From: a phage
Direction: 5' to 3' (one strand)
DNA length: 50,126 nt
Sequence record: PZ445405.1
The notes under the pieces are model-generated. The model did no database searches and was not told the DNA's origin. It saw nothing but the letters and a program-made list of their open reading frames with translations. The stretch's first letter is position 1; every line of letters starts with the position of its first letter. Positions 5,440 through 45,440 of this stretch are shown one piece after another. A program made the position numbers and the translations under genes.

Positions 5440-6873
5440 ATGGCTAGCGAATTAAGAGCAGTAACCGCTGGGACTGCCCACGCCCTAAAGCAAAAAATCA
5501 TGGAATACATTGCTGATGGTTGGCAGCCTTATGGAAGAATCCTTAACGCTGGAGCGACTAGCGTTGGTATCATCATGGCGAAAGGTACTACAGCAAGCAT
5601 TAATGATGTTGATGTTATTACCGCAGATTCAAGGGCTTCTTTAGTTTCTAAGATTAACTCATCCATCGAAAATGGGTTTGAGATGTTCGGAGAGCAGGAA
5701 GTGAACGCAAGTAGATTTATCGCCTTCATGACTAAGGGTTCTCAAGGTTCATCTGGTGGCGGTGGAGAACCTGGACCAATTGGGCCTAAGGGTGAGAAGG
5801 GTGACAAGGGCGACAAGGGAGATGTTGGTGAGCGCGGACCCGCTGGCCTAGCTGGTGCGGCTGGCGCTACTGGTCCATCTGGCCCTCAAGGTTTAACTGG
5901 CCCCGCCGGCGCTAAAGGTGATACTGGTGAGCAGGGACCAATGGGTCCAACTGGCGCTACTGGACCTAAAGGTGATACTGGCGAAACTGGTCCCGCCGGA
6001 CCGCAGGGCCCAAGAGGATTGCAAGGTGAGCAGGGGGTTCCGGGCGAGGTTGGTCCTGCTGGATTGACATTCCAGGGCGCATGGGATTCTGCTGCGACAT
6101 ATGTGAAGGATGACACTGTAGTTTATGATGGGTCTACTTGGTTTGCTCCAGATGCTGTAGCTGCTGGATTAGTCCCTGGAGTTGCTACTGAGTGGATTCT
6201 TTTAGCTGCGCAAGGCGCAAGGGGCGAGGATGGTCCGCAGGGTCCGGTTGGCCCTCAGGGTTTACAGGGTGCCACTGGCCCAGCGGGTCCTACTGGTGCT
6301 ACTGGTGCTACAGGCCCGCAAGGCCCTAGAGGTATACAAGGTCAAACTGGCCCGGCAGGCCCAGCAGGTCCTCAGGGTGAGGCTGGTCCTCAGGGTATTC
6401 AGGGTCCGCAGGGTGTCGCTGGGCCTCAGGGATTAACTGGTCCTCAGGGTCCAAAAGGTGATAAAGGCGATGCTCCTTACACATTATTTAACTCGCAGAA
6501 CGTTACATCAACATACATTGAAATCCCTATTCCGCAAGTAACCAACACTGTACTTAGGGTTAGGCTTTCAGGTGCCAACTTTGAATATAGCGTTTTAAGC
6601 AAAGGCGGCGCCAATAGATATGTTGACTTTTACACATTCATCCCGTCATTAACTAGCTCAACGGGTAACATCTATACCGGAGGAACTACCTTGACACCAA
6701 CTGGTAGCCTCTTTTTGGGTAACTCCCCCGTGGCTCTTGGATTGAGGGAGTTGACAATAACACTCAAGGAATGGGGCGACAGAACGCTAACTACAATAAA
6801 GGCGATACATCACGGCAGATCAGGTGACACAACAAGACCTTTGCAGATAACTATGTTTAGTAATAAGTATTAA
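5440..6873 (+). CDS. Collagen-like (Gly-X-Y repeat) protein, probable virion fibre
   Basis: Two long uninterrupted G-X-Y tracts ([20 protein letters not shown].. and [22 protein letters not shown]..) flanked by globular N- and C-terminal domains. Confidence 0.8.
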
Positions 6874-14908: not shown

Positions 14909-15664
14909 ATGTTAAGTCCAAAGTTTGAAAATCAGTTGCAAAGCCTTTTCCCTGGCGAAATTGTGACACTAATCCAGGTTGATGGCACCTCCTTTGGCGG
15001 TCTCGTTTATTCGTTCCATAATGAGAACATTTCATACACGCCAGAGGAAATCATGCTGGCCCAGATGAATGGCGATCCACTACCAGAGAAGACAATCACA
15101 TTTCGCGGAGAGGAATATGGACCTCGCCCATTCGGAATCTCTGGTATCAATATGACCTCTGACGGAAAGGCCAACAAAGTGACGCTAACAGTATCAAACG
15201 TAGACCAGCGAATTAGCGCATTGATTCGAACATACAATGGACTGGTTAGGGCTAAGGTTACTATCTGGATTACTACGCGAGACAACATCAACGAAGATGG
15301 AAGCATTGCTGATGGGGACTATCGCAGGTTCGTTTACTTCATTGAGAGACCAAAGCAGGTTGATTACAAAACGGCATCATTTGAGCTTAGCTCACCTATG
15401 GATATGGATGGAATTTACATTCCTGCGAGACTTGTTCAGTCTGTTTGCTATTTTGCCTCCAGGGGATGGTATCGAAGTGGTAATGGGTGTTCATATGCTG
15501 GTAACAGATACTTTAACAAGGATGATGAGCCGGTGGCAGACCCTTCATTAGACTTCTGTGCGGGAACTGTTAACAGCTGCAAGCTTAGATTCGGTGAGAA
15601 TAATCAGTTGGATTTTGGCGGTTGCGCGGCGGCAAGCCTTCAGGCAAAAGCGAATCAAAGCTAA
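14909..15664 (+). CDS. Minor tail protein (lambda gpL-like) with C-terminal Cys cluster
   Basis: C-terminal cysteines (CYFASRGW..GCSYAG..FCAGTVNSC) as in the lambda L iron-sulfur motif; position. Confidence 0.75.
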   Translation: MLSPKFENQLQSLFPGEIVTLIQVDGTSFGGLVYSFHNENISYTPEEIMLAQMNGDPLPEKTITFRGEEYGPRPFGISGINMTSDGKANKVTLTVSNVDQRISALIRTYNGLVRAKVTIWITTRDNINEDGSIADGDYRRFVYFIERPKQVDYKTASFELSSPMDMDGIYIPARLVQSVCYFASRGWYRSGNGCSYAGNRYFNKDDEPVADPSLDFCAGTVNSCKLRFGENNQLDFGGCAAASLQAKANQS

Positions 15665-15738
15665 ATAGCACGAATTGCTAAACACCAACGCGACGGATGG
15701 CGTATAGTTACTTCATCGAAACGAGAGGAGATAAATAA
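15665..15738 (+). promoter_or_regulatory. Canonical promoter cassette (box 15665-15682, TATAGT 15703-15708, leader CATCGAAACGAGAGGAG)
   Basis: Near-identical to the cassette at 537-611; TTGCTA to TATAGT spacing 22 bp. Confidence 0.6.
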
Positions 15739-22174: not shown

Positions 22175-22258
22175 TTTGTATTCCTTAGTAAGTTCGTTTC
22201 GTTTCGATGGAGTAATAGTATCGCATCCTTGCGATCAGTGTTTAGCAATTCGTGCTAT
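22175..22258 (-). promoter_or_regulatory. Canonical promoter cassette on the minus strand (box at 22241-22258)
   Basis: Reverse complement reads ATAGCACGAATTGCTAAA, 22 bp, TACTAT, CATCGAAACGAAACG; the box also encodes the C-terminus (NSTNC) and stop of the upstream gene. Confidence 0.55.
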
Positions 22259-22931
22259 TCGCCAAGAATACAGCTCTTGCAAATCCACGAGGTGTAAGGC
22301 TGCGAATTACCTTTGTCTTCTTGCTCTTGCCGCCAAGTTTCTTGTATTGGTCAGAGAAACCACCATCAACCTCCACAGGAATCGCCTCAGGCCATCTAAA
22401 CCCATTACCAGACCAAATACATGTCTTTTTAGGGTATGCATCTCTTGGCTTTATTAGGTCTCTAAAAAACGGGTGTAAATCATCTTCCGGCAAATATCCA
22501 CCGTACTCATATGGATGGAAAGTGTTATCAGGTTTTCGCCAAAGTGATGAAAGTACGCTGATTGGGTTTTCAATCATGTATGGCACCTCGTACTTTTCAG
22601 CCAGGTTGAAAGCAAACTTGCAAGTCTCTGCCGCCTCAATTTGAAAATTAGGATTGGCAAGACGCTTACGCTCGAAGTGTCTTGAGCCGCTCACCGCTAA
22701 ATCCGTACAAGGCGGGAATGCTAAAATGAAATCAGGCTTCACATCGAAATCGAAGTCAGCATCTATCCAGGTGTTAACGTAGGTAATATTCTCATGCTCA
22801 ACTTTTGCGTTTAAGTCACCGTAGCTCCCGTGGTCTGACTCATCAAAGTTGAAGCAGTAGCAAGTGTGACCAGCTTCAGCCCAATCTTTTACCGCCAGAC
22901 CAGAACCATCAAATAAAGACCAGATAACCAT
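22242..22931 (-). CDS. Short DNA C5-cytosine methyltransferase-like protein (229 aa)
   Basis: Motif I-like LFDGSG, catalytic motif IV-like FPPC, motif VI-like ENPIS; too short for a canonical C5-methyltransferase. Confidence 0.4.
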   Translation of the reverse strand: MVIWSLFDGSGLAVKDWAEAGHTCYCFNFDESDHGSYGDLNAKVEHENITYVNTWIDADFDFDVKPDFILAFPPCTDLAVSGSRHFERKRLANPNFQIEAAETCKFAFNLAEKYEVPYMIENPISVLSSLWRKPDNTFHPYEYGGYLPEDDLHPFFRDLIKPRDAYPKKTCIWSGNGFRWPEAIPVEVDGGFSDQYKKLGGKSKKTKVIRSLTPRGFARAVFLANSTNC

Positions 22932-23003
22932 ATTAAAACCCCTCTCGTTAAAGTGCGGCGATTATACCGCGCAAAATTTATTGTTCTTTGGCAATTCGTG
23001 CCA
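22932..23003 (-). promoter_or_regulatory. Promoter cassette variant on the minus strand (box TGGCAcgaatTGCCA, 22 bp, TATAAT, leader AACGAGAGGGG)
   Basis: Perfect palindrome variant of the box; -10 TATAAT (rc of 22961-22966); upstream stop codon abuts the box. Confidence 0.55.
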
Positions 23004-23005
23004 TA

Positions 23006-23494: not shown

Positions 23495-24136
23495 TTATAC
23501 CACCTTATTTTCGATTTGCATTACGTTATTAACTGCCAGCATAACATTTCGATTCTGCTGCTGCGTTGTAACTACAAAAGACTCCATCTTAATCCGATCT
23601 AAATCTTTTTCCGCACCCTCTCGGGTTAATTGCATTACCCGGTCATGGTTATATTTTTCCAATTCCGTCAACCCCACCTTATCTTCAAGCTTCCAGCAGT
23701 ACACCTGCATTTCACTATATATTTTAGAGTTTACAGCCATTTGGCCTTGCATGCTATGAATGTGGTTATCTTTCTCTTTAATGATTTTCTCGTAATGTGC
23801 CACGATGTTTAGATTTCCAACAGCTTCGATCTTTGACTCAAGTTCATGAAGCCTTCGGATTACTTTATGGCGAAGTGCGACGCTGTATCCGGTGATTAGC
23901 GTTTCGGTAAGTTCCTTGTTAAGCAAAATCTCTGATGTATAGCCACGAACGTCAGTAAGTACTTGATAATCATCATGACTCAAATCTGAGTCATCGTTAT
24001 AATGTAACAATTCATCGATCATTTCTTGAGCGTCCCTCACGACGTTGCCATGTCGCTTTCCGGTTAATTCGGCAACTTCCTTTGTGCTCATCATTGCTTT
24101 TGGTTGTTCTTTGTACACTTTAATATTCATTTTCAT
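23495..24136 (-). CDS. Rha-family phage regulatory protein (putative)
   Basis: N-terminal motif STKEVAELTGKRHGNVVRD typical of the Rha domain; start ambiguous (24136, 24130 or 24172). Confidence 0.55.
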   Translation of the reverse strand: MKMNIKVYKEQPKAMMSTKEVAELTGKRHGNVVRDAQEMIDELLHYNDDSDLSHDDYQVLTDVRGYTSEILLNKELTETLITGYSVALRHKVIRRLHELESKIEAVGNLNIVAHYEKIIKEKDNHIHSMQGQMAVNSKIYSEMQVYCWKLEDKVGLTELEKYNHDRVMQLTREGAEKDLDRIKMESFVVTTQQQNRNVMLAVNNVMQIENKVV

Positions 24137-24172: not shown

Positions 24173-24276
24173 GATTTGATGTTCGGCCTGAAATTCAGGT
24201 TGGATGACGACACCATTGCCGCCATGCGCCTAAATATAACTAAAGATACCCAGTTGTCTTTAGCAATTAGTGCTAT
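24173..24276 (-). promoter_or_regulatory. Promoter cassette on the minus strand (box at 24259-24276, centre CTAAT; -10 TATATT)
   Basis: Reverse complement ATAGCACTAATTGCTAAA followed 22 bp later by TATATT; long leader with a possible 18-codon upstream ORF. Confidence 0.45.
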
Positions 24277-24299
24277 TTATCGCCAATTCCACCATAAAT

Positions 24300-24640
24300 C
24301 ACAGTTACACGTAACCGATGTAACTCGATGTATACAATCTCGTCCGCGGAAAATGGTATACGCCCTGTTACGCCTGGTTACGCTATAGTTACATTAAAAT
24401 ATCTATATATATCAACCTTTTACTCTTATTATTATTATTATATATATTACTATGTATATCATGTAACTACTTCTATGGAGTGTTCCGGTTGTAATTTTAA
24501 TATCATGTGGATTTATACAGTATCTAACAATCAGCATAGCAACGCACCCTCCTTGAAGAATGGTATACACGATATACACGCTGGTTACATTGAGCTATAG
24601 CTGGTCTGGGGTGCCAAAAAGCGTAACTAGTGGCAGTGCC
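24300..24640. repeat. Iteron plus microsatellite control region A (paralog of region B at 42866-43200)
   Basis: CGATGTA x2 at 10-bp spacing (24316, 24326), GTTACGC x2 at 10-bp spacing (24367, 24377), (TA)n 24394-24402, (TTA)5 24426-24440, palindrome AGCTATAGCT 24593-24602; same motif order as region B. Confidence 0.7.
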
Positions 24641-24714
24641 TACACGGAATTACAAGGATTCACGCGTAAACTTAATAAATTGATAGGCACAAACGATATG
24701 ACTTATCACCTCCT

Positions 24715-24763
24715 AGTGCATATAGTTATCTCATCGAAAGCAAACAACCAGAGAGATAAAGAA
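24715..24763 (+). promoter_or_regulatory. Box-less cassette variant (TATAGT 24721-24726 plus conserved leader CATCGAAAGC)
   Basis: -10-like element and leader match the cassette family but no palindromic box lies 22 bp upstream. Confidence 0.4.
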
Positions 24764-24958
24764 ATGACCTACTACATTATCAAAGAGAAAAACAACGCAC
24801 TGTTCGGTGACTGCTACTTTGGTGGCCCTGCCGGATACACAACGGATAAGAACGAGGCTGACAGATTCGAGACTAAAGAAGAAGCCCGAGATGTGCTGAC
24901 TGGTTACTTCACAGTAGAAGATATGAAATCGGTTAAGGTTGTTGAGGTGAAGGAATAA
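24764..24958 (+). CDS. Hypothetical small protein (64 aa)
   Basis: ATG with SD GAGAG downstream of the leader; motif GDCYFGGPAGYTTD. Confidence 0.4.
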   Translation: MTYYIIKEKNNALFGDCYFGGPAGYTTDKNEADRFETKEEARDVLTGYFTVEDMKSVKVVEVKE

Positions 24959-24961
24959 AAT

Positions 24962-25927
24962 ATGAGCTTTAAAGTTTTTACGCGAGAGGAACTAAGCAAC
25001 GAGGCTTATCATAACGAGACTGAGCATATATCAGGCAGTTCAATTGTCGAGATTATCCAGGGCTCTCCGGCTAAGTGGAAGTTTAAACAGCGTAATAATG
25101 ATAGCAAGGCTCTTAAGTTCGGAACGCTGAGTCACACATACATCCTAGAGGGTGACGTGTTTGATAAAGAATACCTGAGAGCAACTGACCTTGACTCAAT
25201 TGAAGGATTGATTACCAGCCAAACCGGTTTGGCTGCGGCACTTAAGAAAGTTGGTGTGGCTGGCACGTCAGGGAAGGGGTATGGCGAGCTTGTAGAGATG
25301 ATGTATCGCTCTGGTGAGGATTGGCCTGTTAAATGGCTAATTGAGCAGAAGGAGAGCGCTCAGGCGCTTGTGGAGGGTAAGGAGTTAGTTAGCGCAGCGG
25401 ACTACGACAAAGTGGTGGCGATGCGTGAGGTTCTTTGCAATATTCCGGCATACGATAAGATTGTTAATAGTGAGACGGCGCAGAAGGAGTTATCAATCTT
25501 CGGTGAGATTCTAGGCGTTGGCGTTAAGATTCGAATCGACCATGTTGACGTTATTGATGGAGTCGTTCGGATCACAGACTATAAAACGACAGCGGACGCA
25601 AGCCCTGAGGGATTTGGCAAATCGGCATTCTCGCACGGGTACCTTGCAAAAATGTCGCTTCAGCGCGATCTGTTTGTGAAGGCATTCAACGAGAAGCGAA
25701 AGGTTGTTGTGGGATTGTTAGCACAGGAGAAGGTAGAGCCATACTTACCAATGCTTTACACCTTGACGGACGAGCAGTTACGAATTGGTAGGTTGCAGTA
25801 TCTTGAGGCGTTGGCCACTTATAAGAAGTGCAAGGAGCTAGATATCTGGCCGGGGTACTCGAATGGGATTACAGAGCAAGAGCTACTAGTTCCTGAGTGG
25901 GCACTGAAACAATACAAAGAAATATAA
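24962..25927 (+). CDS. PD-(D/E)XK-family nuclease, putative recombination exonuclease
   Basis: Motifs IDHVDVIDG and ITDYKT (D..D.K core); genomic context with Erf and SSB. Confidence 0.5.
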   Translation: MSFKVFTREELSNEAYHNETEHISGSSIVEIIQGSPAKWKFKQRNNDSKALKFGTLSHTYILEGDVFDKEYLRATDLDSIEGLITSQTGLAAALKKVGVAGTSGKGYGELVEMMYRSGEDWPVKWLIEQKESAQALVEGKELVSAADYDKVVAMREVLCNIPAYDKIVNSETAQKELSIFGEILGVGVKIRIDHVDVIDGVVRITDYKTTADASPEGFGKSAFSHGYLAKMSLQRDLFVKAFNEKRKVVVGLLAQEKVEPYLPMLYTLTDEQLRIGRLQYLEALATYKKCKELDIWPGYSNGITEQELLVPEWALKQYKEI

Positions 25928-26002
25928 ATAGCACGAATTGCTAAAGACAAAATTAACGAGTGGGGTATGATTGCCCCATCAACAACGAACGAGGTTAAAA
26001 TT
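25928..26002 (+). promoter_or_regulatory. Canonical promoter cassette (box 25928-25945, TATGAT 25966-25971, leader CATCAACAACGAACGAGG)
   Basis: Box overlaps the stop of the upstream gene; 22-bp spacing conserved. Confidence 0.55.
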
Positions 26003-27228: not shown

Positions 27229-29748
27229 TTACCCAGTTGCTCCAGTAACTATATTTTTCCATCCAGTCCCTGTCGCAAAAGCAATTAATCCAGTACCCGT
27301 ACCAAACGATGCATTATTGTTAGTGCATGATTGATTTCCGGTGCGCTGGAGATTTGCAGCATCTACAGTTAAACCAAATCCATAGGCACGATAGTTGAAG
27401 CCACTTTTTGCATTTGATGGGATGAGCGAGTTACCATAGTTTATTGCACCGTAGATATCAACAATCCCTGCTGCGGTCGTTTCAATTGGATTTCCCGAAG
27501 TGGAAATAAGCGTTACGTTACTTGCCGTTACCATTCCTCCAGAATAAAACAGGGCAAGTTTTCCACTGTTCGCACCTGTAACATTACTCAGTATCACTCT
27601 TGGTGATGAGGCGTCTGCATTGGCAGCGAATTGCCTGAACAGATGGCCGTTAGAATAAACCATATCAGAAATGTTTATATTTTTTAACGTTCCTCCACGA
27701 ATTTGGCAGAGTGTTGCCTCTGTTTTATGATCTACCGACCCTTTTATAGTTACGTTGTCAACAACACCTCTCGTAACCAGGCACAATGAACTGTACTGGT
27801 CACCACTTAACAAAGTATTTTTTGACTTGATATTAACGTTAAGGATTCTTGACTTATCATTTCCAGATCCTTCACCACATGCGAATCCAAACTTAGAATT
27901 TCTTGGCGCATCCATGTCTAAGTTATAGACTGTGACACCAACAGACCCCCTAACGTCAACAACAGGAGTTGATATATTAGTTAAGTTAGTGGATACGCCT
28001 TCCACTACCACTTGATCAGCAAACACCTCGCCCAGGCCACGGTCGTAAATTTCACACAGTGCATGGCCCGCTCCAGGAATAGCGGATATATCATCAAATA
28101 TTGCATATTTAACCGTTGTTTTTGTTAGGTTATGATCAGCCCAAATTCTTACCGGAGCATGTTGGCAGGTGCCATGTATTCCCCGTACAGATACATGCTT
28201 AAACTCAACACCATCGTTACCTGCAAGCTTTACAGCACACAGAGTTGTGTCATTAAATAACCCTTCAACATCGATAAATGTGAAATTTCCTCGAGTCCCT
28301 AAGTCATATGATGCGTAATCTCCACCGGTCATTGCGAATAAGTCGTCTCCGGTATGACCACGTAGATTCCTTACATACGCATGGTAGATGGGTGGTTGCA
28401 AGTGAAGACCATCAGAGTGATTGTCAAACTCAAGACCCTGAGCATCAAGGTAATCAATATTCGCTACAAGATAGGCATACTTGAACGCCCCACCAACTTT
28501 AAGTCCACCACCAAGTTTTAGCCTTTTAACACCAGCTATACAGATGGCATGGGTATTAAGCCCTCCTGGAGCAGTACCGGATTTGTTATAATTTATAATT
28601 CCACCACCACGAATTCCAAGATAATCAGATTTTTTAGTCAGGTCCGAAGGGTTTGATATGGTATCAAACCAATACTCACTAATAAATAAAGGCATGTTTG
28701 TGCCTTCTACGTTTCTAATCTCTGTTCCTGCGTGAATCAATACATCCATATTGTTTTTTAGCAGTAAAGAACCATTTACCAACACAACTCCTTTGCAGTC
28801 AAAAACAAATTGAGAAATGAAAGATTGTCCTCCTAGCGACGAAAATACCGAGTTAATCCTTGCAGTATTCTCTTCTGCCGTAGAAGATGGGGATACACCA
28901 TAATCAGACATAAAATAAGTTTGCCCAACGCGCACATCCAAAGGCATAGGAACCCCAGGGCCATTTGGATTTGTGTATGTGACTAGTGACGAACCAGATC
29001 CAGAAGCTAAGTTAGCTCTTAATGATGTATCACTAGCTCTAACCCATGCACCAGGACCAATACCACCAGATGATTCAGGAGTTGATCCAGCTGGAACAAC
29101 CTTAGGTAACGTTCCTGACCAAAGGAACTGTACGGCATAACCATCAATGAATTGAATTATCACTTGGTTTTTTGACTGAAGAGTTACTCCATCATCAAAG
29201 TTACCAACCAGGGCTCCGGATACTGATTCAGCGGCACTCTGAGCGACGATTGCAGAATTGCTTGCAGATGACGCGGAACTAGAAGCTGAATCCTTGTCTG
29301 CTGATACCTGAGATGCATCAGATGATACCTGAGAAGCAATAGTAACAATTTCTCCAAACTGTGTGTTAACTTGGTTTACATCAGTTGAGAATTTATCATG
29401 ATCAAAATCCTTGAAAACATCAACCGCCTCTGCAATCGCAGTTTCACGCGACTGATAGTGACGAAGTGTTTCCGCAACATCTTGAGCTAAACCCTGAACG
29501 GTAATTCCATCATGCGCAAGGATTGCGTAACCAGTACCAGCAGGAACGGTTTCAGAATTAGGGTTGTAAACATTAATCTGCGTATCGCTGATAATTTCTG
29601 AGATGGTGTAAATTTTTACTGGTTCAGTTTTGAAAACAATGGTAGCACCTACGCGAATCAGTGTAAGCGGTGCTTTCCATGTAGTTCCCACGCCGGTCAC
29701 CTCGCCATTTGCGGATAACGACGCCGTTCCTAAGTCATAAATTGCCAT
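27229..29748 (-). CDS. Side tail fibre / tailspike-like protein (839 aa)
   Basis: Large Gly/Ser/Asn/Thr-rich protein with Ser-rich linker (SSDASQVSADKDSASSSASSASNS); start at ATG 29748 with SD GGAG. Confidence 0.6.
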   Translation of the reverse strand: MAIYDLGTASLSANGEVTGVGTTWKAPLTLIRVGATIVFKTEPVKIYTISEIISDTQINVYNPNSETVPAGTGYAILAHDGITVQGLAQDVAETLRHYQSRETAIAEAVDVFKDFDHDKFSTDVNQVNTQFGEIVTIASQVSSDASQVSADKDSASSSASSASNSAIVAQSAAESVSGALVGNFDDGVTLQSKNQVIIQFIDGYAVQFLWSGTLPKVVPAGSTPESSGGIGPGAWVRASDTSLRANLASGSGSSLVTYTNPNGPGVPMPLDVRVGQTYFMSDYGVSPSSTAEENTARINSVFSSLGGQSFISQFVFDCKGVVLVNGSLLLKNNMDVLIHAGTEIRNVEGTNMPLFISEYWFDTISNPSDLTKKSDYLGIRGGGIINYNKSGTAPGGLNTHAICIAGVKRLKLGGGLKVGGAFKYAYLVANIDYLDAQGLEFDNHSDGLHLQPPIYHAYVRNLRGHTGDDLFAMTGGDYASYDLGTRGNFTFIDVEGLFNDTTLCAVKLAGNDGVEFKHVSVRGIHGTCQHAPVRIWADHNLTKTTVKYAIFDDISAIPGAGHALCEIYDRGLGEVFADQVVVEGVSTNLTNISTPVVDVRGSVGVTVYNLDMDAPRNSKFGFACGEGSGNDKSRILNVNIKSKNTLLSGDQYSSLCLVTRGVVDNVTIKGSVDHKTEATLCQIRGGTLKNINISDMVYSNGHLFRQFAANADASSPRVILSNVTGANSGKLALFYSGGMVTASNVTLISTSGNPIETTAAGIVDIYGAINYGNSLIPSNAKSGFNYRAYGFGLTVDAANLQRTGNQSCTNNNASFGTGTGLIAFATGTGWKNIVTGATG

Positions 29749-29771
29749 AATTTCAACTCCTATTTTTATTG

Positions 29772-29789
29772 ATAGCACGAATTGCTAAA
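29772..29789 (+). promoter_or_regulatory. Orphan palindromic box ATAGCACGAATTGCTAAA without downstream -10 or leader
   Basis: Perfect box lying between two minus-strand genes, 24 nt from the tail-fibre start codon. Confidence 0.4.
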
Positions 29790-29811
29790 GTGGATTGTAT
29801 CATCTTTAGGG

Positions 29812-29842
29812 CATAAAAAAACCTCCCGAAGGAGGTTAGTTT
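29812..29842. terminator. Bidirectional terminator overlapping the primase stop codon
   Basis: CCTCC-cgaa-GGAGG flanked by A7 and TTAGTTT. Confidence 0.55.
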
Positions 29843-30759
29843 AGTAGTTCGCTTGCCTTATAGATTCTCTTTCTTATTCCTGACTTGAAAAAATTATCAT
29901 CATTTGGCATTACCACATCAATATTGCGATCGTCAGCAACGGCGAGTAAATCAAGATCGTGGCGAGTACAAGCGATGCGTAACTTGTATTTTCTAAGCGC
30001 GTAAGCAACCATTTCCATGTTGTAGATGGAGTAGCAAACAAGCACGCAGCGGTTGCCAGTAGCAATGTGAACACGATAGCCGTCAATGAGATTATCGACC
30101 AGATAAGCGTAATCATCATCCTTAAAGGAACCAATAACAGAAACAGATTGGCGAGTATAATCTTTTGCAGCATAACTAACACCTCCATATTCATTGATAA
30201 ACATTACATTACACATTTCTTCTGATATGCCGTCACTATAAGCCATAAAGCACGGCACTGCGTGTATTAGTTCGCCTGATTTTGTTCTGCCAACATCAAA
30301 GCCAAACTCGCTATAGATTCCCTCGTATGTACTGAGCGGAGTTGATTCTACTCTTTCAGTCCTTTCCATTATCTCTAAGCATCTTTCGTGGTCAATCTGA
30401 GCGCCCATTTTGTAGATCTGGGTTCTTGATGCTTGCTTGTTTGCTTTAACTATAACCTCAATTGGTGTTAAGTTCAGCCAGTCACCAAGCAAATTTACTG
30501 AATCGGCGAAGGACGATCCAGTGCACTTCATGACCCATCCTATACCGGAGTCACTCCCGCATTTCGAACAAACTGCCGCGCCATTTCCTTTTTCACTGCC
30601 TATTTCGTCGGTAAATCTGAATCTGTCAGTGCCAAAGCAGTATGGGCATGGTCCGTGCTTCTTACTTAGGTGTCTATCATTCCAACCAAGTTCCTTTGCA
30701 TAAAATGATTTCCACAATCCGGCCATCTTAGGTATAACTTCATTCTTATCGTAATTCAT
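29836..30759 (-). CDS. DNA primase-like protein with zinc-ribbon
   Basis: Cys motifs CPYCFG..CSKCGSD in the N-terminal region; ATGA coupling with the upstream HNH gene; replication gene context. Confidence 0.5.
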   Translation of the reverse strand: MNYDKNEVIPKMAGLWKSFYAKELGWNDRHLSKKHGPCPYCFGTDRFRFTDEIGSEKGNGAAVCSKCGSDSGIGWVMKCTGSSFADSVNLLGDWLNLTPIEVIVKANKQASRTQIYKMGAQIDHERCLEIMERTERVESTPLSTYEGIYSEFGFDVGRTKSGELIHAVPCFMAYSDGISEEMCNVMFINEYGGVSYAAKDYTRQSVSVIGSFKDDDYAYLVDNLIDGYRVHIATGNRCVLVCYSIYNMEMVAYALRKYKLRIACTRHDLDLLAVADDRNIDVVMPNDDNFFKSGIRKRIYKASELLN

Positions 30760-31235
30760 TTGCTTAACCCGTGATTTTCGTGAAAGTTGTATTTTCTCTC
30801 TGCTTCAATTCTTACTTTATACGCCTGCTCTGGAGTATCGAAGTTCCCAAGGTGTAACTGCTTACCGTCAACCTTGATGTGAGCCTTAAATTTTCCGTGA
30901 TTTAGCTTTGCCACTCCACAATAACCAGTTGTTGATAAAACGCTAAGCCTGCAATTTCTTGAGTTACCTTGATTTGTTGTTACTCTTAGGTTTTCTATTC
31001 TGTTATCTAATTTGTTATGGTTTATATGATCAATGTAGTCGCCATTTTGAAGTTCTCCATTAAACATCTCCCACACAACTCTATGTACGTAAGTCCTAAA
31101 GCCATTAACAGACACTTTGTAATAGCCAGATGTAGATAGTGAGTTGCACTCATCGCCAACCTTAACACGTCTTGCAGTGCTAATCTTCCAATGCAATTTG
31201 CCATCTACATAGTAAAAATAATCATGCCAGTTCAT
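30756..31235 (-). CDS. HNH homing endonuclease (HNH + AP2-like), copy 2
   Basis: Motifs DHINHNKLDNRIENLRVTT and paralogy to the other two copies. Confidence 0.8.
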   Translation of the reverse strand: MNWHDYFYYVDGKLHWKISTARRVKVGDECNSLSTSGYYKVSVNGFRTYVHRVVWEMFNGELQNGDYIDHINHNKLDNRIENLRVTTNQGNSRNCRLSVLSTTGYCGVAKLNHGKFKAHIKVDGKQLHLGNFDTPEQAYKVRIEAERKYNFHENHGLSK

Positions 31236-31308
31236 TTTCTTCTCTCCAATAAAAAAGGATGTACCGATTATGGCACATCCAATCCTTTAATCTTTAGCTT
31301 TTCGTGCT
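31236..31308 (-). promoter_or_regulatory. Cassette variant upstream of HNH-2 (box AGCACGAAAAGCTAAAG, terminator hairpin, CATAAT, TTTTTTATTGGAGA RBS junction)
   Basis: Box overlaps the C-terminus and stop of the upstream gene; hairpin GGATGT..ACATCC. Confidence 0.45.
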
Positions 31309-31760
31309 GCTTCGTTAGCTGCCTTAATCTTGCGCCACGATCGACACTCTGGCTTGGTGGCCAGTTCAGCCTCAGTTACCACACGCAGCATGTGACGTTT
31401 TTTGCAGCGTAGAGTTAGTGGTTTTCCGTTACCGTCGAATTGCAGGTCTGGTCTACAGAATGTGGCGCGAAAACCTTCTCCGGTTCGTTTGTAGTAGTTG
31501 TGCGACAGTTGAGCGCCACGTGCAGAAATCATACCACGCTTAAACCACTCTTCTACAGCCTGCGGCGTTACCTTTAACTGCTTTGCGATATTCGCCTTTG
31601 TGCCGAAGAAATCAAGAATCATCTCTAACCTTGCGCGTAACCCAGCCCTTACCTCATCTTTCAAAACGTAGTAACCTGAAGGTCGCTTTCGCTGCTTTTT
31701 ATCTTCAGTGCGGATGGTTCCGTTATTGCCGTTAATGGTTCGCTTGTCAATTGTACTCAT
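31287..31760 (-). CDS. Putative HTH DNA-binding protein (157 aa)
   Basis: HTH-like segment ANIAKQLKVTPQAVEEWFKRGMIS; basic; first gene of an early minus-strand operon. Confidence 0.45.
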   Translation of the reverse strand: MSTIDKRTINGNNGTIRTEDKKQRKRPSGYYVLKDEVRAGLRARLEMILDFFGTKANIAKQLKVTPQAVEEWFKRGMISARGAQLSHNYYKRTGEGFRATFCRPDLQFDGNGKPLTLRCKKRHMLRVVTEAELATKPECRSWRKIKAANEAARKAKD

Positions 31761-31772
31761 TTCATTACCTCG

Positions 31773-31861
31773 ATAGCATTTTTTGTTAAAAGTCATTCTG
31801 ATTTGATGGTAGTATTGTACTCAATTAAACGCTACAAGACAATTTTTATAGGAATTTAGAT
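31773..31861 (+). promoter_or_regulatory. T-rich-centre cassette upstream of the helicase gene (ATAGCATTTTTTGTTAAAAG)
   Basis: Box-like sequence followed at about 21 bp by TAGTAT; ATG at 31862. Confidence 0.4.
31814..31842 (-). promoter_or_regulatory. Sigma70-like promoter on the minus strand (TTGTCT, 17 bp, TACAAT)
   Basis: Canonical 17-bp spacing, divergent from the helicase cassette; would drive the HTH, HNH-2, primase operon. Confidence 0.4.
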
Positions 31862-33856: not shown

Positions 33857-34272
33857 ACATAACAGATAAAGAAGATTACATTGAGTTTTACCCGGGCCCG
33901 GTTAAGTATTGCCCTAAAGAGGATGACGAGCAAATCTTTTGCTCTGATTGGGTTAAGTATCATTACCCTCAGATTGTTTACTGGCACACGGTTAATGAAT
34001 CGATGAAGACCATTGGACAGGCAAGAAAAGACCAGGCCAAAGGTTTGCTTAAGGGGGTTTCGGACTGCTTATTCCTGATACCTGAATCACTTCGTGGTAA
34101 ATACCCTTTTGGAGCCATAGAGCTAAAAAGGGCCGGGAAGACGCAGGCGAGTCCAGTCAGCGACGAACAGAAGTCCTTCCTTAAGAGCGTCAGAGAATCG
34201 GGCGGCTTCGGGGCTGTAGCTTACGGACGTGAGGGTTTTCTTGCGGCATTCAAAGAAATGATTTCAAAATAG
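33853..34272 (+). CDS. VRR-NUC domain nuclease (putative)
   Basis: Motif GVSDCLFLIPESLRGKYPFGAIELKR (D..E.K core); ATGA coupling to the helicase gene. Confidence 0.55.
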   Translation: MNITDKEDYIEFYPGPVKYCPKEDDEQIFCSDWVKYHYPQIVYWHTVNESMKTIGQARKDQAKGLLKGVSDCLFLIPESLRGKYPFGAIELKRAGKTQASPVSDEQKSFLKSVRESGGFGAVAYGREGFLAAFKEMISK

Positions 34273-34350
34273 CACGAATTGCTAAAGACGTTTCGGTGAG
34301 TTGGTGTATTATCTATTCATCGAAACGAAACGCACAAAGAGAGAAACAAA
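34269..34350 (+). promoter_or_regulatory. Canonical promoter cassette (box 34269-34286, TATTAT 34307-34312, leader CATCGAAACGAAACG)
   Basis: Box contains the TAG stop of the upstream gene; 22-bp spacing. Confidence 0.55.
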
Positions 34351-34641
34351 ATGGCTACTATCTATACTGGTAAATTCTACGAATCACGCAAAACTGGTTA
34401 TGAGTATGAATTAGTAATAACCCCAGAAGGTTATGTACTTGATGATGGTGAAGGGTACGCATTCGAAGTTAGCCCGACTTACAAAGATGATTTAGAAACT
34501 GTTAAAAACGCATTTGGCGAAAAATTTGATGTTATTGATGATGGTGATGGCTACGCATTCGAAGTTAGCCCAACCTACAAAGATGATTTAGAAACTGTTA
34601 AAAACGCATTTGGCGAAAAAATTGATGAGGTATCAGAGTAA
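34351..34641 (+). CDS. Hypothetical acidic protein with internal 32-aa tandem duplication
   Basis: Two 96-bp direct repeats (34441-34536 and 34537-34632) encoding DDGEGYAFEVSPTYKDDLETVKNAFGEK twice. Confidence 0.5.
   Translation: MATIYTGKFYESRKTGYEYELVITPEGYVLDDGEGYAFEVSPTYKDDLETVKNAFGEKFDVIDDGDGYAFEVSPTYKDDLETVKNAFGEKIDEVSE
34441..34632 (+). repeat. Tandem 96-bp in-frame duplication (2 units, about 93% identical)
   Basis: Direct comparison of the two units shows only about 7 substitutions. Confidence 0.8.
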
Positions 34642-39338: not shown

Positions 39339-40922
39339 TCACCCCAGCAGTCGTGGATTAATGTAAACTTTATCACCAATCAGGCATGTATAGTTTTTCT
39401 CATCTAACATCGGCAGCAAGTGGTCTTTAATCTTTGTCATCACTCCAGCCTGAGACTCGAACGGCTTAACCTTGCGCGCAGCCTCATACAATGAACGAAT
39501 GCCAACTACGCCTTTCCCGTTCTTTCCTTGCTTGATAAGGATATCAATCAGCTTATTCATCTCGGCATTGTCGCCAGCGTGACCAGCGGCGTTAGCAGAT
39601 GACAGATAAGTCTTGCTAAGCTCCTGGAACATGATTACAGCCTCTTGCATTGTGTCCAGTCCAATCTCTCTGGACTTCTGCGGGCTTCCGCCATTTGGGT
39701 TAAACCAGTTACGGACAGTGTGAATAACTGCGGCAATCCTGATAGCCTGCTTATCGAACTTGCCCAGCGCGCCGCGCAACATAGTATGTGAATACTTACC
39801 GCCATCAGCAAGATGGGGCTCCATTTCCTGACGTGCACGGTTGAGATATTTCATCGCTGAGTTACTCACTGTCAGCTTTACTTCCTGCTCGCTCATGATT
39901 TCGTGAACCAAGCGGAAGTAGTCAGCCTTCAGTCCGCTGTCAATTGGCTCGTATGTTGACTCTCCATTCTCATCAACGAATACACGTTCGCCCAGGAAGG
40001 ACTTTTCACGCACAAGCAGAAAACGCTCCGACACACCGATACCACGCGCACCAGCATTCATAATGGCGTTGATTGTTTCGTCCTGCGCAATTACCGAGAT
40101 GCAACCCATAGCAACGAAACTCATGTTGTTCTCTGCGTTCGCACGCGCGATAGATACGTTACCAGCATCCCATGCTTTAAGCACGAGTTCACTGTTTGTT
40201 TTCTTTGAGCCATCTCCATAGGTCATGCCCAGAAGTGAGTTCACGCTCGTCGCCTCATCCGAGATTACTGCGAAGTTTCCCTGGCGGTTGTTTATTCGCG
40301 CAAGTCCCTCAGGCGTGGTGTCGGATACGGGGAAAACGATATCGCATAGCTTCTCGAGTTTCTCCTCCAACTCCTCTTTCTCTTCAAAAAGTGAAGCCAT
40401 CTCTGAAGGAGATTTTTCCTGCTTCATCTCTTTGGATAATGCAGATAGTTTGGCCATAATCTTTTTGCGCTCGCGTTTTCGCAATTCATTTAGTCGCTCA
40501 GTCTCGGCAATCATCGGGGCAATAGAAAGTGAGTTAATCGCTGATTTACCGGTCGATGGAGGTTGACTTGTAACTACGTAAAGAGATGTTGGCTGCTGCG
40601 TTCCGTGATACTCAACAGTAAAGCGGCCCAGCATAGCAGCGGAAATGCAACCCAAAAAGTGCATATAAGCTGAAGACTCCGGGAACTGAACAGAACGAGC
40701 AATGTTGGCTGACAGTCTACCAACAACGTCAACATCATTTCCGAGCGAGATTACAGGATACTTGTCATTGGCCGCATCAATCTCGACCGGTGCTTTCCAG
40801 AATGACTGAGACTGGCGATAGCCATTAGCATTGATAGCCACGCGCAGGGGTGGGAGGTTTTCTGCGGCAGCTATTGCCATAACTTGTTCAACAGATAGTT
40901 TATCTTCGTTGAAATCAAACAT
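39339..40922 (-). CDS. Replicative P-loop NTPase (primase-helicase / SF3 helicase-like)
   Basis: Walker A PSTGKS and Walker B-like AVISDEAT; N- and C-terminal regions shared with the paralog at 43766-44293. Confidence 0.6.
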   Translation of the reverse strand: MFDFNEDKLSVEQVMAIAAAENLPPLRVAINANGYRQSQSFWKAPVEIDAANDKYPVISLGNDVDVVGRLSANIARSVQFPESSAYMHFLGCISAAMLGRFTVEYHGTQQPTSLYVVTSQPPSTGKSAINSLSIAPMIAETERLNELRKRERKKIMAKLSALSKEMKQEKSPSEMASLFEEKEELEEKLEKLCDIVFPVSDTTPEGLARINNRQGNFAVISDEATSVNSLLGMTYGDGSKKTNSELVLKAWDAGNVSIARANAENNMSFVAMGCISVIAQDETINAIMNAGARGIGVSERFLLVREKSFLGERVFVDENGESTYEPIDSGLKADYFRLVHEIMSEQEVKLTVSNSAMKYLNRARQEMEPHLADGGKYSHTMLRGALGKFDKQAIRIAAVIHTVRNWFNPNGGSPQKSREIGLDTMQEAVIMFQELSKTYLSSANAAGHAGDNAEMNKLIDILIKQGKNGKGVVGIRSLYEAARKVKPFESQAGVMTKIKDHLLPMLDEKNYTCLIGDKVYINPRLLG

Positions 40923-41347: not shown

Positions 41348-41428
41348 TTTATTTACCTTTCGTTATTTCGTTTCGATGAGATGAATATACAGGAAAAGCC
41401 CCCGAAGGGCTTTATCAATTAGTGCTAT
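41348..41428 (-). promoter_or_regulatory. Promoter cassette on the minus strand (box rc of 41411-41428, terminator-like hairpin in spacer, TATATT, leader CATCGAAACGAAA)
   Basis: Box ATAGCACTAATTGATAAA; spacer 23 bp contains GCCC-ttcg-GGGGC; the box encodes the C-terminal NSTN-stop of the upstream small ORF. Confidence 0.5.
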
Positions 41429-41576
41429 TTCGAGCCTTTTCTATCGCCTTGAGCATAATCTCATGGCTCTCAAGCAAGTCCTCGCGGAACCAGTCCCCAC
41501 AAGGCCAGCCCTTTCCGCTGTAGGCGCTTATTATTTCAAGATCGAAATAATTTATCTCAGATGGTAATAGCATCAT
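41415..41576 (-). CDS. Hypothetical small protein (53 aa)
   Basis: ATGA-coupled to the upstream gene; ends inside the cassette box. Confidence 0.3.
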   Translation of the reverse strand: MMLLPSEINYFDLEIISAYSGKGWPCGDWFREDLLESHEIMLKAIEKARNSTN

Positions 41577-42620: not shown

Positions 42621-42692
42621 ATCTATACCCTCGTTGTTGATGAGCTAACTATACCCTCAACAGCCGCGCTTGTCTTTAGCAAAAAGTGCTAT
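42621..42692 (-). promoter_or_regulatory. T-rich-centre cassette on the minus strand (box rc of 42675-42692, TATAGT, leader CATCAACAACGAGGG)
   Basis: Reverse complement ATAGCACTTTTTGCTAAA; spacing 22-23 bp. Confidence 0.5.
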
Positions 42693-42699
42693 TCGTTAG

Positions 42700-42800
42700 A
42701 TTTATGGATTGTTGCGGATATTGCAATGATTCCCATGATTATTGCACATATAGCAATATTGCTTCAGATGCAATGATGTTTTTGATTGTTGCGAAATGAG
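42700..42800. repeat. Cluster of short direct repeats (GATTGTTGCG x2, TGCAATGAT x2, ATTGC motifs) in ORF-free DNA
   Basis: Repeated 9-10-mers read directly; no credible ORF. Confidence 0.5.
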
Positions 42801-42865
42801 CAATAAAGTAGTGAGTGAGTGAATGAAAGATGGATGGACTACCATACAAGTTGATTTTGATTCTG

Positions 42866-43200
42866 CTAATCCATTTTCACGCTTACACGTAACGCCCGTA
42901 GCGCGATGTAAGCCAACGCCTATCGTTACGCGAGTTACGCGCAGCTACGCCTAGACTTACACTATAAGTGCCTAATATATATATATATCTTCTTTCTATT
43001 ATTATTATTATTATTATTATTATTGTATGTAAGTCATGTAACGGGGTTTCCGGCGATATCTATATGTTTTTTCCTATCAGTTATAGCCTTGGCTATAATT
43101 TAAGGTATGGAGTGGGTGTTTTGGGGCCATTTGCCTCGTTACACGCACGACACGCCACTTACATTAAGCTATAGCTGGGCTAGCATACCATTTCGCGTAA
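42866..43200. repeat. Iteron plus microsatellite control region B (paralog of region A)
   Basis: ACGTAAC 42887, CGATGTA 42904, G(T/C)TACGC x3 at 42925/42934/42944, (AT)7 42975-42988, (TAT)9 42997-43023, palindrome AGCTATAGCT 43167-43176. Confidence 0.7.
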
Positions 43201-43229
43201 CGACCCCCAAAAGTTACCAAAAATTACAC

Positions 43230-43258
43230 TTGACTACATGTGTAAGTCGGGATATGAT
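43230..43258 (+). promoter_or_regulatory. Strong sigma70-type promoter (TTGACT, 17 bp, TATGAT) with conserved leader
   Basis: Near-consensus hexamers at canonical spacing; leader AAACGAGAGGAG precedes ATG 43290. Confidence 0.6.
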
Positions 43259-43289
43259 GGACTCAACTTAAACGAGAGGAGTGATAGAG

Positions 43290-43769
43290 ATGAACGAGAA
43301 AGTAACATTGGGCCAAGTGATTCGTGAGATGGTGAAAGCAGCGCTTAAGTCTGAGGACAAGCAGATCAGCGTGACACTCAACAAGATTGAGAGCCTTATC
43401 GGCGCCGAGGAGGGTGGTCTAAATAAGCTTAAGAGCTCATACATCTACAATACAACGGCTCGCATGCCTGAGTTGAGAGATGCCGGACTGAAGGCGACTC
43501 ACCACTATGATGAAGAAAGGGGTGTTAATGAATATACTGGGAGTGAGATACTTGGAGACAAAAAGCTTGTTATTAAACTAATTCCAGGCTCGGCAAACAT
43601 TGGAATCAGGAAGAAGACCAACGACGCGATCAAGGATGAGGCAATCACTGAGTTCAAAGCCAGGATTTCTAAGGTGATGCCAGACCTTTCTGCGTATGAA
43701 GGTGAGGCCCTTGCAGCCGCTATGAAGGCCATTAAGGATTACCGTTTGATTATTGAGGAGATTAAGTGA
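43290..43769 (+). CDS. Hypothetical protein (159 aa), likely immediate-early
   Basis: First gene behind the sigma70 promoter; SD GAGGAG. Confidence 0.45.
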   Translation: MNEKVTLGQVIREMVKAALKSEDKQISVTLNKIESLIGAEEGGLNKLKSSYIYNTTARMPELRDAGLKATHHYDEERGVNEYTGSEILGDKKLVIKLIPGSANIGIRKKTNDAIKDEAITEFKARISKVMPDLSAYEGEALAAAMKAIKDYRLIIEEIK

Positions 43770-44293
43770 TGTTTGACTTTAACGAGGATAAACTGACAGA
43801 AGAGCAGGTAATTGAGATAGCCAAGCAAGATGGGCTGCCGCCGCTGCGAATTGCAATCAATGCTAACGGGTATCGACAGTCAACGGCGTTTTGGGGCTCG
43901 ATTGATACCTCAGGGGTGTATAGTGGTGATGAGCTTGGTGTAATGATTAAAATCATCAGGAAAATGGGAGTTAACGGCAAAGGAGTTGTTGGCGTCAGGT
44001 CTCTATATGAAGGTGCTCGCAAGCTGAAACCATTTGCGGGGCGCGATGGGATGATGCTACTGATTAAGGATAAGCTAATTCCAGAGCTCGACAAGATGAA
44101 TATCACGTGCCTCATTGGCGATAAGATTTACGTCAACCCTGCCTTGACGGATTTAAGCTGGCATCCTAACTTCAAAACTTACGAAGGTGAGCACGCTAGT
44201 AGACTACCATACCACTTGCGGTACACTGAGGAAGAGGTGGAGAAGGCTATTGAGTTCTATCGGAAAGCTAAATCACTAATTATCGCCAAATAG
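43766..44293 (+). CDS. Truncated paralog of the primase-helicase (N- and C-terminal domains only, no ATPase core)
   Basis: N-terminus MFDFNEDKL..LPPLRIAINANGYRQS and segment NGKGVVGVRSLYEGARKLKPF..CLIGDKIYVNP match the two ends of the 527-aa protein. Confidence 0.55.
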   Translation: MMFDFNEDKLTEEQVIEIAKQDGLPPLRIAINANGYRQSTAFWGSIDTSGVYSGDELGVMIKIIRKMGVNGKGVVGVRSLYEGARKLKPFAGRDGMMLLIKDKLIPELDKMNITCLIGDKIYVNPALTDLSWHPNFKTYEGEHASRLPYHLRYTEEEVEKAIEFYRKAKSLIIAK

Positions 44294-44363
44294 CACGAAT
44301 TGCTAAACAATGGATCGGGTAGTCAGCTATGATTACTTCATCGACAACAAAGAGGAAATGAAG
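44290..44363 (+). promoter_or_regulatory. Canonical promoter cassette (box 44290-44307, TATGAT 44328-44333, leader CATCGACAACAAAGAGG)
   Basis: Box contains the TAG stop of the upstream gene; 22-bp spacing. Confidence 0.55.
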
Positions 44364-44825: not shown

Positions 44826-45440
44826 ATGGCTAAAATCATCATTCTTAATGGACCAGCTGGAGTGGGCAAAGACACTATCGGAAACGCGTTACACTATGAT
44901 TACCGATGTATACAAACAAGCTTTAAGCGTCCAATGTTTGAAATTGCCGAGTCAATCCTGGGGGCCGGGGCGTTCAGTAAGTTCATCACGGCTTATGATG
45001 ACCGAGATCAGAAAGAGATGCCTCAGAGCTTCCTTGGTGGCAAGACGTGCCGCGAGTTCATGATCTGGATTAGCGAGTCGGTAGTCAAGCCGCTATTTGG
45101 CAATCAGCAGTTCGGTAAGCTAATGAGCGAACATATCAAGCTGTGTGACGAAGGATTAACGTTCGTTTGCACTGATGGCGGTTTCGCTGATGAAGTTATC
45201 CAGCTTGTTGAAGATGGTCACGATGTTACGCTGGTGCGACTTTTTATGGAAGGCAAGACCTTCGCAGGCGATAGCCGTAATTACATCCGAATCAAGGAAT
45301 CGCACTTCCCTGATTATAAAAAGTATCAGGAGCATAGCGTTCGCCTGGTTAATGGTGACATTGGTGGCGGCGTATTGGCGGTGGCTGAGGCTTGCGGACT
45401 AACCTCAGATTACGAATGGGTAGACGATATTCCCTGGTAA
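44826..45440 (+). CDS. P-loop nucleotide kinase (dNMP kinase-like, putative)
   Basis: Walker A GPAGVGKDT at the N-terminus; overall architecture reminiscent of phage deoxynucleotide kinases. Confidence 0.5.
   Translation: MAKIIILNGPAGVGKDTIGNALHYDYRCIQTSFKRPMFEIAESILGAGAFSKFITAYDDRDQKEMPQSFLGGKTCREFMIWISESVVKPLFGNQQFGKLMSEHIKLCDEGLTFVCTDGGFADEVIQLVEDGHDVTLVRLFMEGKTFAGDSRNYIRIKESHFPDYKKYQEHSVRLVNGDIGGGVLAVAEACGLTSDYEWVDDIPW

Follow-up and report, generated by a model that had tools for sequence, protein, structure and literature searches.

Twin repeat and AT-tract modules of a T1-like coliphage as candidate replication origins of the phage family

Bacteriophage T1 is one of the seven original T phages, and in the accessible literature there is no replication origin for T1 or its relatives and no usable T1 origin mapping or set of transcription start sites. 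Here we describe two paralogous non-coding modules, region A (24299-24680) and region B (42877-43260), each about 350 bp long, in the phage sequence record PZ445405.1, whose complete stretch of 50,126 nucleotides is called the window below. The window is a T1-like siphovirus, a coliphage of the Drexlerviridae (Braunvirinae); its gene order is as in T1, and its closest records are BEK2/BEK3, UALMA_PCEc3 and JeanPiccard (about 85-86% identity over 60-70% of a 25-kb query). In each module, 5-7-bp repeats, arrayed at intervals of roughly a helical turn, lie on both sides of the DNA that melts most easily in the genome. The twin module is thus far the strongest candidate for the origins of replication in T1-type phages, a function that we infer. 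The authors of the TLS re-annotation sought lambda-type repeats, reported none, and state that there are no iterons anywhere in that genome (PMC11447400); given this statement and the state of the literature, the family-wide twin modules appear to be undescribed.

Organization of the twin modules

Both modules share one left-to-right layout (Table 1), which consists of a first repeat array (L1), a linker, a second array (L2), an AT tract, repeats of opposite orientation, a module-specific block, a hypervariable spacer, the R repeats, a palindrome, inverted copies and a rightward promoter. A preliminary description of this DNA had proposed two regions with the same ordered motifs, and positions 24280-24680 and 42860-43260 indeed align at 77% column identity with the order kept. 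The 10-bp palindrome AGCTATAGCT common to both occurs exactly twice in 50 kb (24593-24602 and 43167-43176; 0.06 occurrences expected by chance), and the GTTACGC iterons number 16 in the window against 4.2 expected (3.8-fold), six of the 16 lying inside the two modules. CGATGTA is present as described (24316 and 24326, a 10-bp step, and 42904), and is not enriched window-wide (8 against 4.2 expected). The proposed helical phasing is borne out by tandem NTACRC pairs 9-12 bp apart, of which the window has seven against 0.75 expected; six of them are in A or B, all on the plus strand. Measured from start to start, the repeat steps are 10, 10 and 11 bp in A (24358, 24368, 24378, 24389) and 9, 10 and 12 bp in B (42926, 42935, 42945, 42957). 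The predicted AT-rich microsatellites were found as (TA)n/(TAT)n tracts at 24404-24448 and 42975-43025. Two further motifs fared less well: TGTATRTCATGTAAC, said to be common to both regions, is exact in A but replaced by TGTATGTAAGTCATGTAAC in B, and GGKGTTCCGG is exact in neither (A has GAGTGTTCCGG, B has GGGGTTTCCGG) and is an approximate match at best.

The elements CGATGTAAC and CGATGTATAC of A-L1 form a 10-bp direct repeat that is inverted relative to L2, the repeat type of L1 being CGATGTA(A/T)AC. On the other side of the A AT tract, TGTATAT and TGTAAC are oriented opposite to L2, so that the innermost repeats of the two sides point toward each other across the tract; their equivalents are GTGTAACAG TTGTATATC GTGTAACAG in T1 and TGTTCT..TGTATAG..TGTTCC in TLS. 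The conserved block to the right of the AT tract is about 60-75 bp long and differs between A and B. The integration host factor (IHF) consensus is matched five times in the window, twice in region A (in the AT tract and beside the rightward promoter) and not in B, and is not enriched overall.

Both regions had been described as free of open reading frames (ORFs) and as lying between divergent genes. Mechanical ORFs do overlap them (24328-24600, 24560-24958, 42968-43174), but these are not genes, as judged from single-base indels in relatives, the rightward promoter inside the long ORF, and the fit to the PHROG profile phrog_5247 (67 positions), which the 64-aa product of 24764-24958 spans from one end to the other. 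The indels and the promoter argue that this 64-aa ORF, rather than one of about 140 aa, is the real gene. In several relatives in GenBank, the annotated gene has about 140 aa and runs upstream into module A (e.g. 3317-3748 and 23562-23978 in two loci; 24560-24958 in the window). The divergent setting holds in the window, but region A is not always so placed elsewhere (TLS, AAS23). Region B had also been said to abut the helicase paralogs; the link to the 527-aa helicase and its 175-aa paralog is real, but the wording was too loose, the helicase gene lying 2 kb to the left of B and the paralog being the second gene to its right.

Table 1. Coordinates of the twin modules, neighbouring genes and associated repeats in the window.
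Feature	Position	Strand	Remarks
Structural genes	to about 21 kb		followed by a short leftward block, then region A
Left boundary of A	24254-24277	-	leftward copy of the 21-nt promoter-associated repeat (aaATAGCACnnnTTGnTAAAA); leftward promoter-like site 24260-24233
A-L1	24304-24335		GTTAC 24304, GTAAC 24311, CGATGTAAC 24316-24324, CGATGTATAC 24326-24335
A linker, 21 bp	24336-24356		AATCTCGTCCGCGGAAAATGG, conserved, between the inverted arrays L1 and L2; aligns with TLS AACCGAATCCGGCGTAAAATTG
A-L2	24357-24393	+	direct repeats ATACGC, TTACGC, TTACGC, TTACAT; adjoins the AT tract directly
A AT tract, candidate DNA unwinding element	24394-24452		(TA)4, IHF-consensus match TATCAACCTTTTA (24410-24422), (TAT)5, (TA)4
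A opposite repeats	24453-24467	-	TGTATAT and TGTAAC; invariant in the alignment of relatives
A-specific conserved block	24468-24527		differs from B counterpart
A hypervariable spacer	24528-24561		34 bp, fixed length
A-R	24562-24602	+	direct repeats ATACAC 24565, ATACAC 24574, TTACAT 24586, then palindrome; 89% identity
A distal repeats	24621-24671		GCGTAAC (24621-24627, inverted), CTACACG, ATTACAA, ACGCGTAAAC
A rightward promoter-like site	24698-24726	+	ATGACT-17-TATAGT, conserved; for the 64-aa gene and exonuclease-Erf-SSB operon
Exonuclease VIII, Erf, SSB	right of region A	+	rightward
Tail fibre, primase, HNH gene, helix-turn-helix (HTH) protein	next block	-	leftward
307-aa primase	29836-30759	-	Zn-ribbon like that of P4 alpha; BLASTP against P4 alpha E 1e-11
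169-aa Cro-like HTH protein	31287-31796	-	family-wide; its neighbours are the SNF2 helicase gene and the HNH endonuclease gene (30756-31235), the latter beside the primase gene
SNF2 helicase through lysis genes	next block	+	rightward
Block with 527-aa helicase	left of region B	-	leftward
527-aa MCM-like (DUF3987, superfamily 6) helicase	39339-40922	-	Pfam DUF3987 E 3e-41; N-terminal three-helix domain, C-terminal winged helix
Leftward 21-nt repeat copy beside B	42670-42693	-	promoter-associated; serves operon with the helicase gene
B-only TTGC/GCAAT repeat block	42694-42870		177 bp; GATTGTTGC, TGCAATGAT and similar, then GTGAGTGAGTGAATGAAAGATGGATGG
B-L1	42883-42913		CTTAC, GTAAC, degenerate CCGTAGC, CGATGTAAG
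B-L2	42925-42962	+	GTTACGC, GTTACGC, GCTACGC, CTTACAC
B AT tract	42974-43027		(AT)n run, then about nine TAT repeats; no indels among six relatives
B opposite repeats	43025-43042	-	TGTATGTAAG..CATGTAAC, right of the AT tract
B-specific conserved block	43043-43080		
B hypervariable spacer	43081-43131		local palindrome TTATAGCC-TT-GGCTATAA
B-R	43139-43201		direct repeats TTACACG, GACACG, TTACAT; palindrome; inverted GCGTAAC 43195-43201
B rightward promoter-like site	43230-43258	+	TTGACT-17-TATGAT; for the DUF7174 gene (Pfam match) and the 175-aa gene
Small early genes	right of region B	+	rightward
175-aa motor-less helicase paralog	43766-44290	+	beside B
ATAGCACGAATTGCTAAA element, forward copies among others	532-555, 15660-15683, 25923-25946, 29767-29790, 34264-34287, 44285-44308, 45436-45459, 46425-46448	+	
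ATAGCACGAATTGCTAAA element, reversed copies	22236-22259, 22982-23005, 24254-24277, 41406-41429, 42670-42693	-	

Duplex stability, conservation and distribution

At all scan lengths from 30 to 120 bp, duplex stability in the window is lowest in the two AT tracts, that of A and that of B (z 4.3-5.6; next 3.4-3.7), with z values of 5.3 for A and 5.6 for B, the latter being the least stable 50-bp stretch of the window. The window, BEK3, T1, TLS, Webervirus K50_evo37 and AAS23 were scanned in the same respect, and in six of the six genomes the two least stable 80-bp stretches were the AT tracts of A and B (z 4.7-6.2 against 3.3-3.7 for the next separate locus).

Segment identities, given as means of pairwise comparisons among eight Braunvirinae, are highest in the AT tract (98.4%), above codon positions 1+2 of the exonuclease gene (91%). 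They amount to 92.9% in the block to the right of the tract and 88-89% in the repeat blocks; the iteron block 24299-24395 has 87.6% among relatives. The 34-bp spacer is 68% identical, near the neutral rate (exonuclease codon position 3, 64%), and yet its length is kept (no indels in nine sequences). The number of repeats in (TAT)5(TA)4 is identical in eight of nine sequences, and such an unchanged microsatellite count implies selection on exact length or phase. A-L1 is near-invariant among nine Braunvirinae and near-identical in the Rogunavirinae Opt-719 and JK06.

Both modules are present in every subfamily examined. Equivalents of A and B were found in the Rogunavirinae (Opt-719, JK06), T1, TLS, Webervirus K50_evo37 and Sauletekiovirus AAS23, and an A-type module in DanielBernoulli, a second Tlsvirus. 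Protein-based locus searches in IMG/VR recovered only ten loci. The modules had no match in complete E. coli genomes or PLSDB plasmids, and there is therefore no sign of their capture by satellites or plasmids. Module A sits between two rightward genes in TLS and DanielBernoulli, and in AAS23, where the exonuclease-Erf-SSB block is inverted and placed beside the primase gene, it has moved along with that block. The Jersey-like phage Vi II-E1, which belongs to another lineage and has a similar set of replication genes, lacks a large region upstream of its exonuclease gene. Its single module lies instead upstream of the operon in which its 'DNA helicase' gene is found, and in this module GTGGGGCAACCnACnTGCCCCACGA repeats flank the least stable tract, which again contains TTATTATTATT. 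Taken together, these arrangements indicate that module A is more than a spacer between divergent promoters.

The repeat cores differ between lineages: GTTACGC, TACACG and ATGTAAC in the window, TGTAACA in T1 (six of six genome copies within the modules), GTGAACA in TLS, and TGCGGTA in AAS23, including a 24-nt stretch identical in A and B. T1 also has GATTAACA, confined to its B region. In a cross-test (with post hoc enrichment P-values), the outcome was clean: each repeat was enriched in the two modules of its own lineage and missing from those of the others. Cores that vary by lineage and yet match between A and B of one phage imply a co-evolving phage protein. Since the A modules of different phages are more alike than A and B within one phage, the duplication is old, and the cores that A and B have in common would reflect a shared binding protein and not a recent copying event.

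Compared with A, module B is the more mosaic one: the flanks of its AT tract look A-type at the record starts of Rtp (1-560) and SU57 (1-480), a sign that the two copies, or different phages, may have exchanged DNA.

Candidate binding proteins

The leading candidate to bind the repeats and to load itself is the 527-aa helicase, which would make contact by the C-terminal winged helix, the N-terminal three-helix domain, or both. Its AlphaFold2 model (predicted local distance difference test, pLDDT, 88.6; predicted template modelling score, pTM, 0.86) returned MCM-complex chains for all 50 of the Foldseek matches listed from the PDB (best E 2e-6, probability 1.00), and residues 451-521 are modelled as a winged helix of the order helix-strand-helix-helix-hairpin. 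Sequence and profile searches of solved structures with this protein, including solved Rep structures, gave no match. DUF3987 proteins have been placed among the superfamily 6 (SF6) helicases, distant relatives of MCM, as replicative helicases that carry a winged helix-turn-helix at the C-terminus (Kazlauskas et al. 2016, PMC4889955), and a PriCT-DUF3987 protein has been demonstrated to be a helicase (PMC11724360).

The 175-aa paralog keeps the N-terminal 42 aa of the helicase (74% identical) and its C-terminal 90-aa winged helix (54% identical), the ATPase core being gone. It was found only in Braunvirinae and Rogunavirinae; its AlphaFold2 model has a pLDDT of 82.4, and the top-ranked Foldseek matches are mostly winged-helix proteins, though weak (E > 0.03). 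It is a candidate regulator or competitor at the same sites as the helicase. The 169-aa HTH protein is an alternative candidate for repeat binding; its putative recognition helix varies between lineages, and it had no match among solved structures by sequence. When repeat type was compared with the divergence of the helicase and of the HTH protein, over six lineages only, no clear relation emerged either way. The primase and HTH protein genes are separated by the inserted HNH endonuclease gene (30756-31235), which T1 and UALMA_PCEc3 lack at this position.

Interpretation

Regions A and B are most likely two copies of a cis-acting site of protein-DNA assembly, either both origins or one origin and an auxiliary copy. 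The preliminary description had called their architecture origin-like, and the phased short repeats beside an AT-rich tract, present twice, are non-random, family-wide and similar to the origin designs of staphylococcal pathogenicity islands (SaPIs), P4 and SPP1. We give even chances to the more specific reading that they are paired origin-type sites for the loading of the MCM-like helicase, which is favoured because the design of SaPI origins is combined here with a duplication like that of SPP1 oriL/oriR. Also in its favour are the independence of module A from divergent promoters, the Vi II-E1 module, which links the design to a helicase operon, and the absence of a competing origin in the literature on T1-like phages. 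A sequence-specific phage protein, foremost the DUF3987 helicase, would occupy the repeats, the AT/(TAT)n tract would melt, the helicase would load itself, and the phage primase and host polymerase would then take over. More speculatively, the motor-less paralog might compete at the same sites or modulate them and, by analogy with SPP1, the copy upstream of exonuclease-Erf-SSB might serve the switch to recombination-dependent concatemer synthesis. A fuller scheme is doubtful as a whole: the T1 family would have two SaPI/MCM-type origins at which the helicase recognizes lineage-specific 5-7-bp repeats and loads itself at the (TA)n(TAT)n unwinding tract, itself conserved exactly, with B firing early, A, in its fusion to the exonuclease-Erf-SSB operon, acting as a fork barrier or recombination-dependent start, and the paralog regulating origin occupancy in Braunvirinae and Rogunavirinae.

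Several points weigh against helicase-loading origins. The P-values for motif enrichment are post hoc, and the GC skew of the window follows gene orientation and transcription and is uninformative on origins. The modules are not adjacent to the helicase gene (2 kb from B, 15 kb from A). The winged helix has a putative recognition helix without basic character, and the Foldseek support from the 175-aa model is weak, as given above. Helicase divergence and repeat type are related untidily, the TLS protein being 73% identical with different repeats and the T1 protein 57% identical with a similar core. Finally, the AT tract is kept exactly, including its repeat number, which exceeds the needs of a simple unwinding element; such conservation would also fit promoter spacing or a protein site within the tract.

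The main rival explanation, close to the regulatory hubs that the preliminary description gave as its alternative and in our view possible though rather unlikely, is that the modules are hubs of transcription control, in which the repeats are operator arrays for a phage regulator (e.g. the 169-aa Cro-like protein) and the AT tracts are promoters or UP, IHF or bending elements that time the early (B) and recombination (A) operons. In most genomes both modules do lie between outward-facing promoter-like sites, but the mapped outward promoters are 170-290 bp from the AT tract, and in TLS and DanielBernoulli the full left half of module A is kept without a leftward gene. Weak promoter-like hexamers occur in or beside the tracts (TTTACT-18-TATATT on the plus strand of A; GTTACA-18-AATAAT on the minus strand of both), and a constraint on -35/-10 spacing would account for the invariant (TAT)n count; these internal sites, however, match at only 9/12 positions, without a conserved -35 across lineages. 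The IHF match in A, the lineage-specific recognition helix of the HTH protein, and the joint movement of module A and the exonuclease operon in AAS23 are also in keeping with such hubs, whereas three to four direct repeats at 10-bp steps would be unusual for HTH operators, which are typically palindromic, and no other intergenic promoter region in the genome has such a design.

Module B, and by extension A, might instead be a packaging signal (pac site) with repeats for the terminase small subunit around an AT-rich cleavage region, which we consider very unlikely. The records of relatives start or end at about 42750-42880 in window coordinates, immediately to the left of module B, and none does so inside the twin module or near A, although the start positions of records are partly conventional. 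These ends fall in or at the edge of the B-only block, which lies between the leftward promoter and module B, is separate from the twin module, has no counterpart in A, and is conserved in Opt-719, JK06 (Rogunavirinae) and Braunvirinae. The Rtp record starts inside this block, the Rao1 record begins at about 42834, and those of SU57, EC3a and ZL19 end at about 42859-42880, at its right edge or slightly past it; the SU57 end was located by PhageTerm and a step in read depth (PMC7718038). Position 1 of the T1 record, the start of the annotated terminal repeat, falls within the equivalent of the block, about 120 bp to the left of T1's own module. The B-only TTGC/GCAAT block is a better pac candidate than the twin module, and is probably the pac or terminase recognition region; moreover, headful packaging of the T1 type expects a single pac site, yet A is as well conserved as B.

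The least probable reading is that promoters in the AT tracts drive small non-coding RNAs, or long structured leaders, from the blocks to the right of the tracts, for although these blocks are 93% conserved yet different in A and B, and a promoter-like site in A is directed into its block, an Rfam scan of the whole window at the gathering threshold yielded only a tRNA-Arg, folding of eight module segments on both strands gave non-significant z values (+1.25 to -1.75), no terminator was found, and variation is too low for a covariation test.

With two precise, family-wide candidates of 350 bp and named candidate binding proteins, the question of the T1 origin becomes directly testable. If paired helicase-loading origins are the right reading, origins with a self-loading MCM-like helicase would be known beyond staphylococcal satellites, in a large family of virulent phages of enterobacteria, and the modules would provide cis elements for the engineering of T1-like phages and help to understand T1 outbreaks in fermenters.

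Other features of the window

The window contains at least 16 copies of a 21-24-nt element, ATAGCACGAATTGCTAAA, which holds the inverted repeat TAGCA-N5-TGCTA and lies a short way upstream of promoter -35 regions, oriented with transcription in every case (Table 1). TLS carries a matching promoter-associated 21-nt repeat, aaATAGCACnnnTTGnTAAAA (PMC11447400), and the element may be an UP element or factor site.

In the head-gene region, a 477-aa ORF (5440-6873) has long Gly-X-Y tracts like those of collagen at two places (about residues 105-200 and 262-345), and its product may be a collagen-like capsid decoration or fibre protein. A 96-nt tandem duplication (34433-34624, 93% identical) within the small ORF 34351-34641 results in an internal 32-aa repeat. 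A tRNA-Arg gene (47382-47459; anticodon TCT, reading AGA) is located among the small early genes.

Comparison with known systems

By sequence, the modules are not DnaA-dependent origins of the oriC type: the four matches to the DnaA box (TTWTNCACA) in the window (5.4 expected) are all outside A and B. Tandem repeats beside an AT-rich tract are also a feature of the lambda origin; unlike the modules, however, lambda has four palindromic repeats of about 19 bp within the initiator gene O, and no initiator or loader of the O/P type is found here.

The virulent pac-type Bacillus siphovirus SPP1 has two similarly organized origins about 13 kb apart, with direct repeats plus an unwinding element rich in AT, both bound by one phage protein, and one copy has been proposed to stall forks and so trigger recombination-dependent concatemer synthesis with an exonuclease, an annealing protein and SSB (PMC6316719). 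The T1-like genomes resemble SPP1 oriL/oriR in having two similarly organized regions of repeats and AT-rich DNA. They differ in that SPP1 uses the origin-binding protein gp38, the loader gp39 and a DnaB-type helicase, no such domains being found among the replication-region proteins of the window, and in that oriL lies inside gene 38 whereas both modules are intergenic.

Like the modules, ori and crr of P4 are two separated cis sites; in P4 both carry the 8-bp repeat GGTGAACA at 10-11-bp steps, with AT-rich DNA alongside. The TLS core GTGAACA (TLS 413-440 and 28769-29004) is identical to that of the type I repeat of ori/crr in P4 (GGTGAACA; P4 9310-9413), with a similar spacing of 9-11 bp, an identity that may be coincidence; the type I repeat TGTTCACC itself is not found in the window modules, from which GTGAACA is absent, this core being present only in TLS. 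The primase of T1-like phages shares the Zn-ribbon of P4 alpha and no other part of it, and a relationship to alpha was rejected, as its helicase part (D5_N, DUF5906, Pox_D5) and origin-binding C-terminus have no homologue in T1-like phages.

In SaPI origins, the C-terminal winged helix of the Rep proteins (two of SF3, one MCM-like of SF6) reads oppositely oriented 5-6-bp repeats to either side of an AT-rich centre, and the helicase loads itself (PMC9371898). The modules likewise have short repeats of 5-7 bp in two opposed sets around a central AT-rich region, with four GTTACGC-type repeats to the left and TGTATAT and TGTAAC to the right in A, and the same layout in B, T1 and TLS. Both systems have an AAA+ helicase with a C-terminal winged helix, hexameric in the case of SaPI Rep and, as predicted from DUF3987, AlphaFold2 and Foldseek, MCM-like in the phage. 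In contrast, SaPI origins are single and immediately downstream of rep, whereas here there are two copies, with B 2 kb upstream of the operon of the helicase gene and A at a distance of 15 kb, and the module is larger, with extra outer repeat arrays, a spacer of fixed length and a palindrome. In its workings the module is likened to the SaPI and P4 origins, while being a member of neither family.

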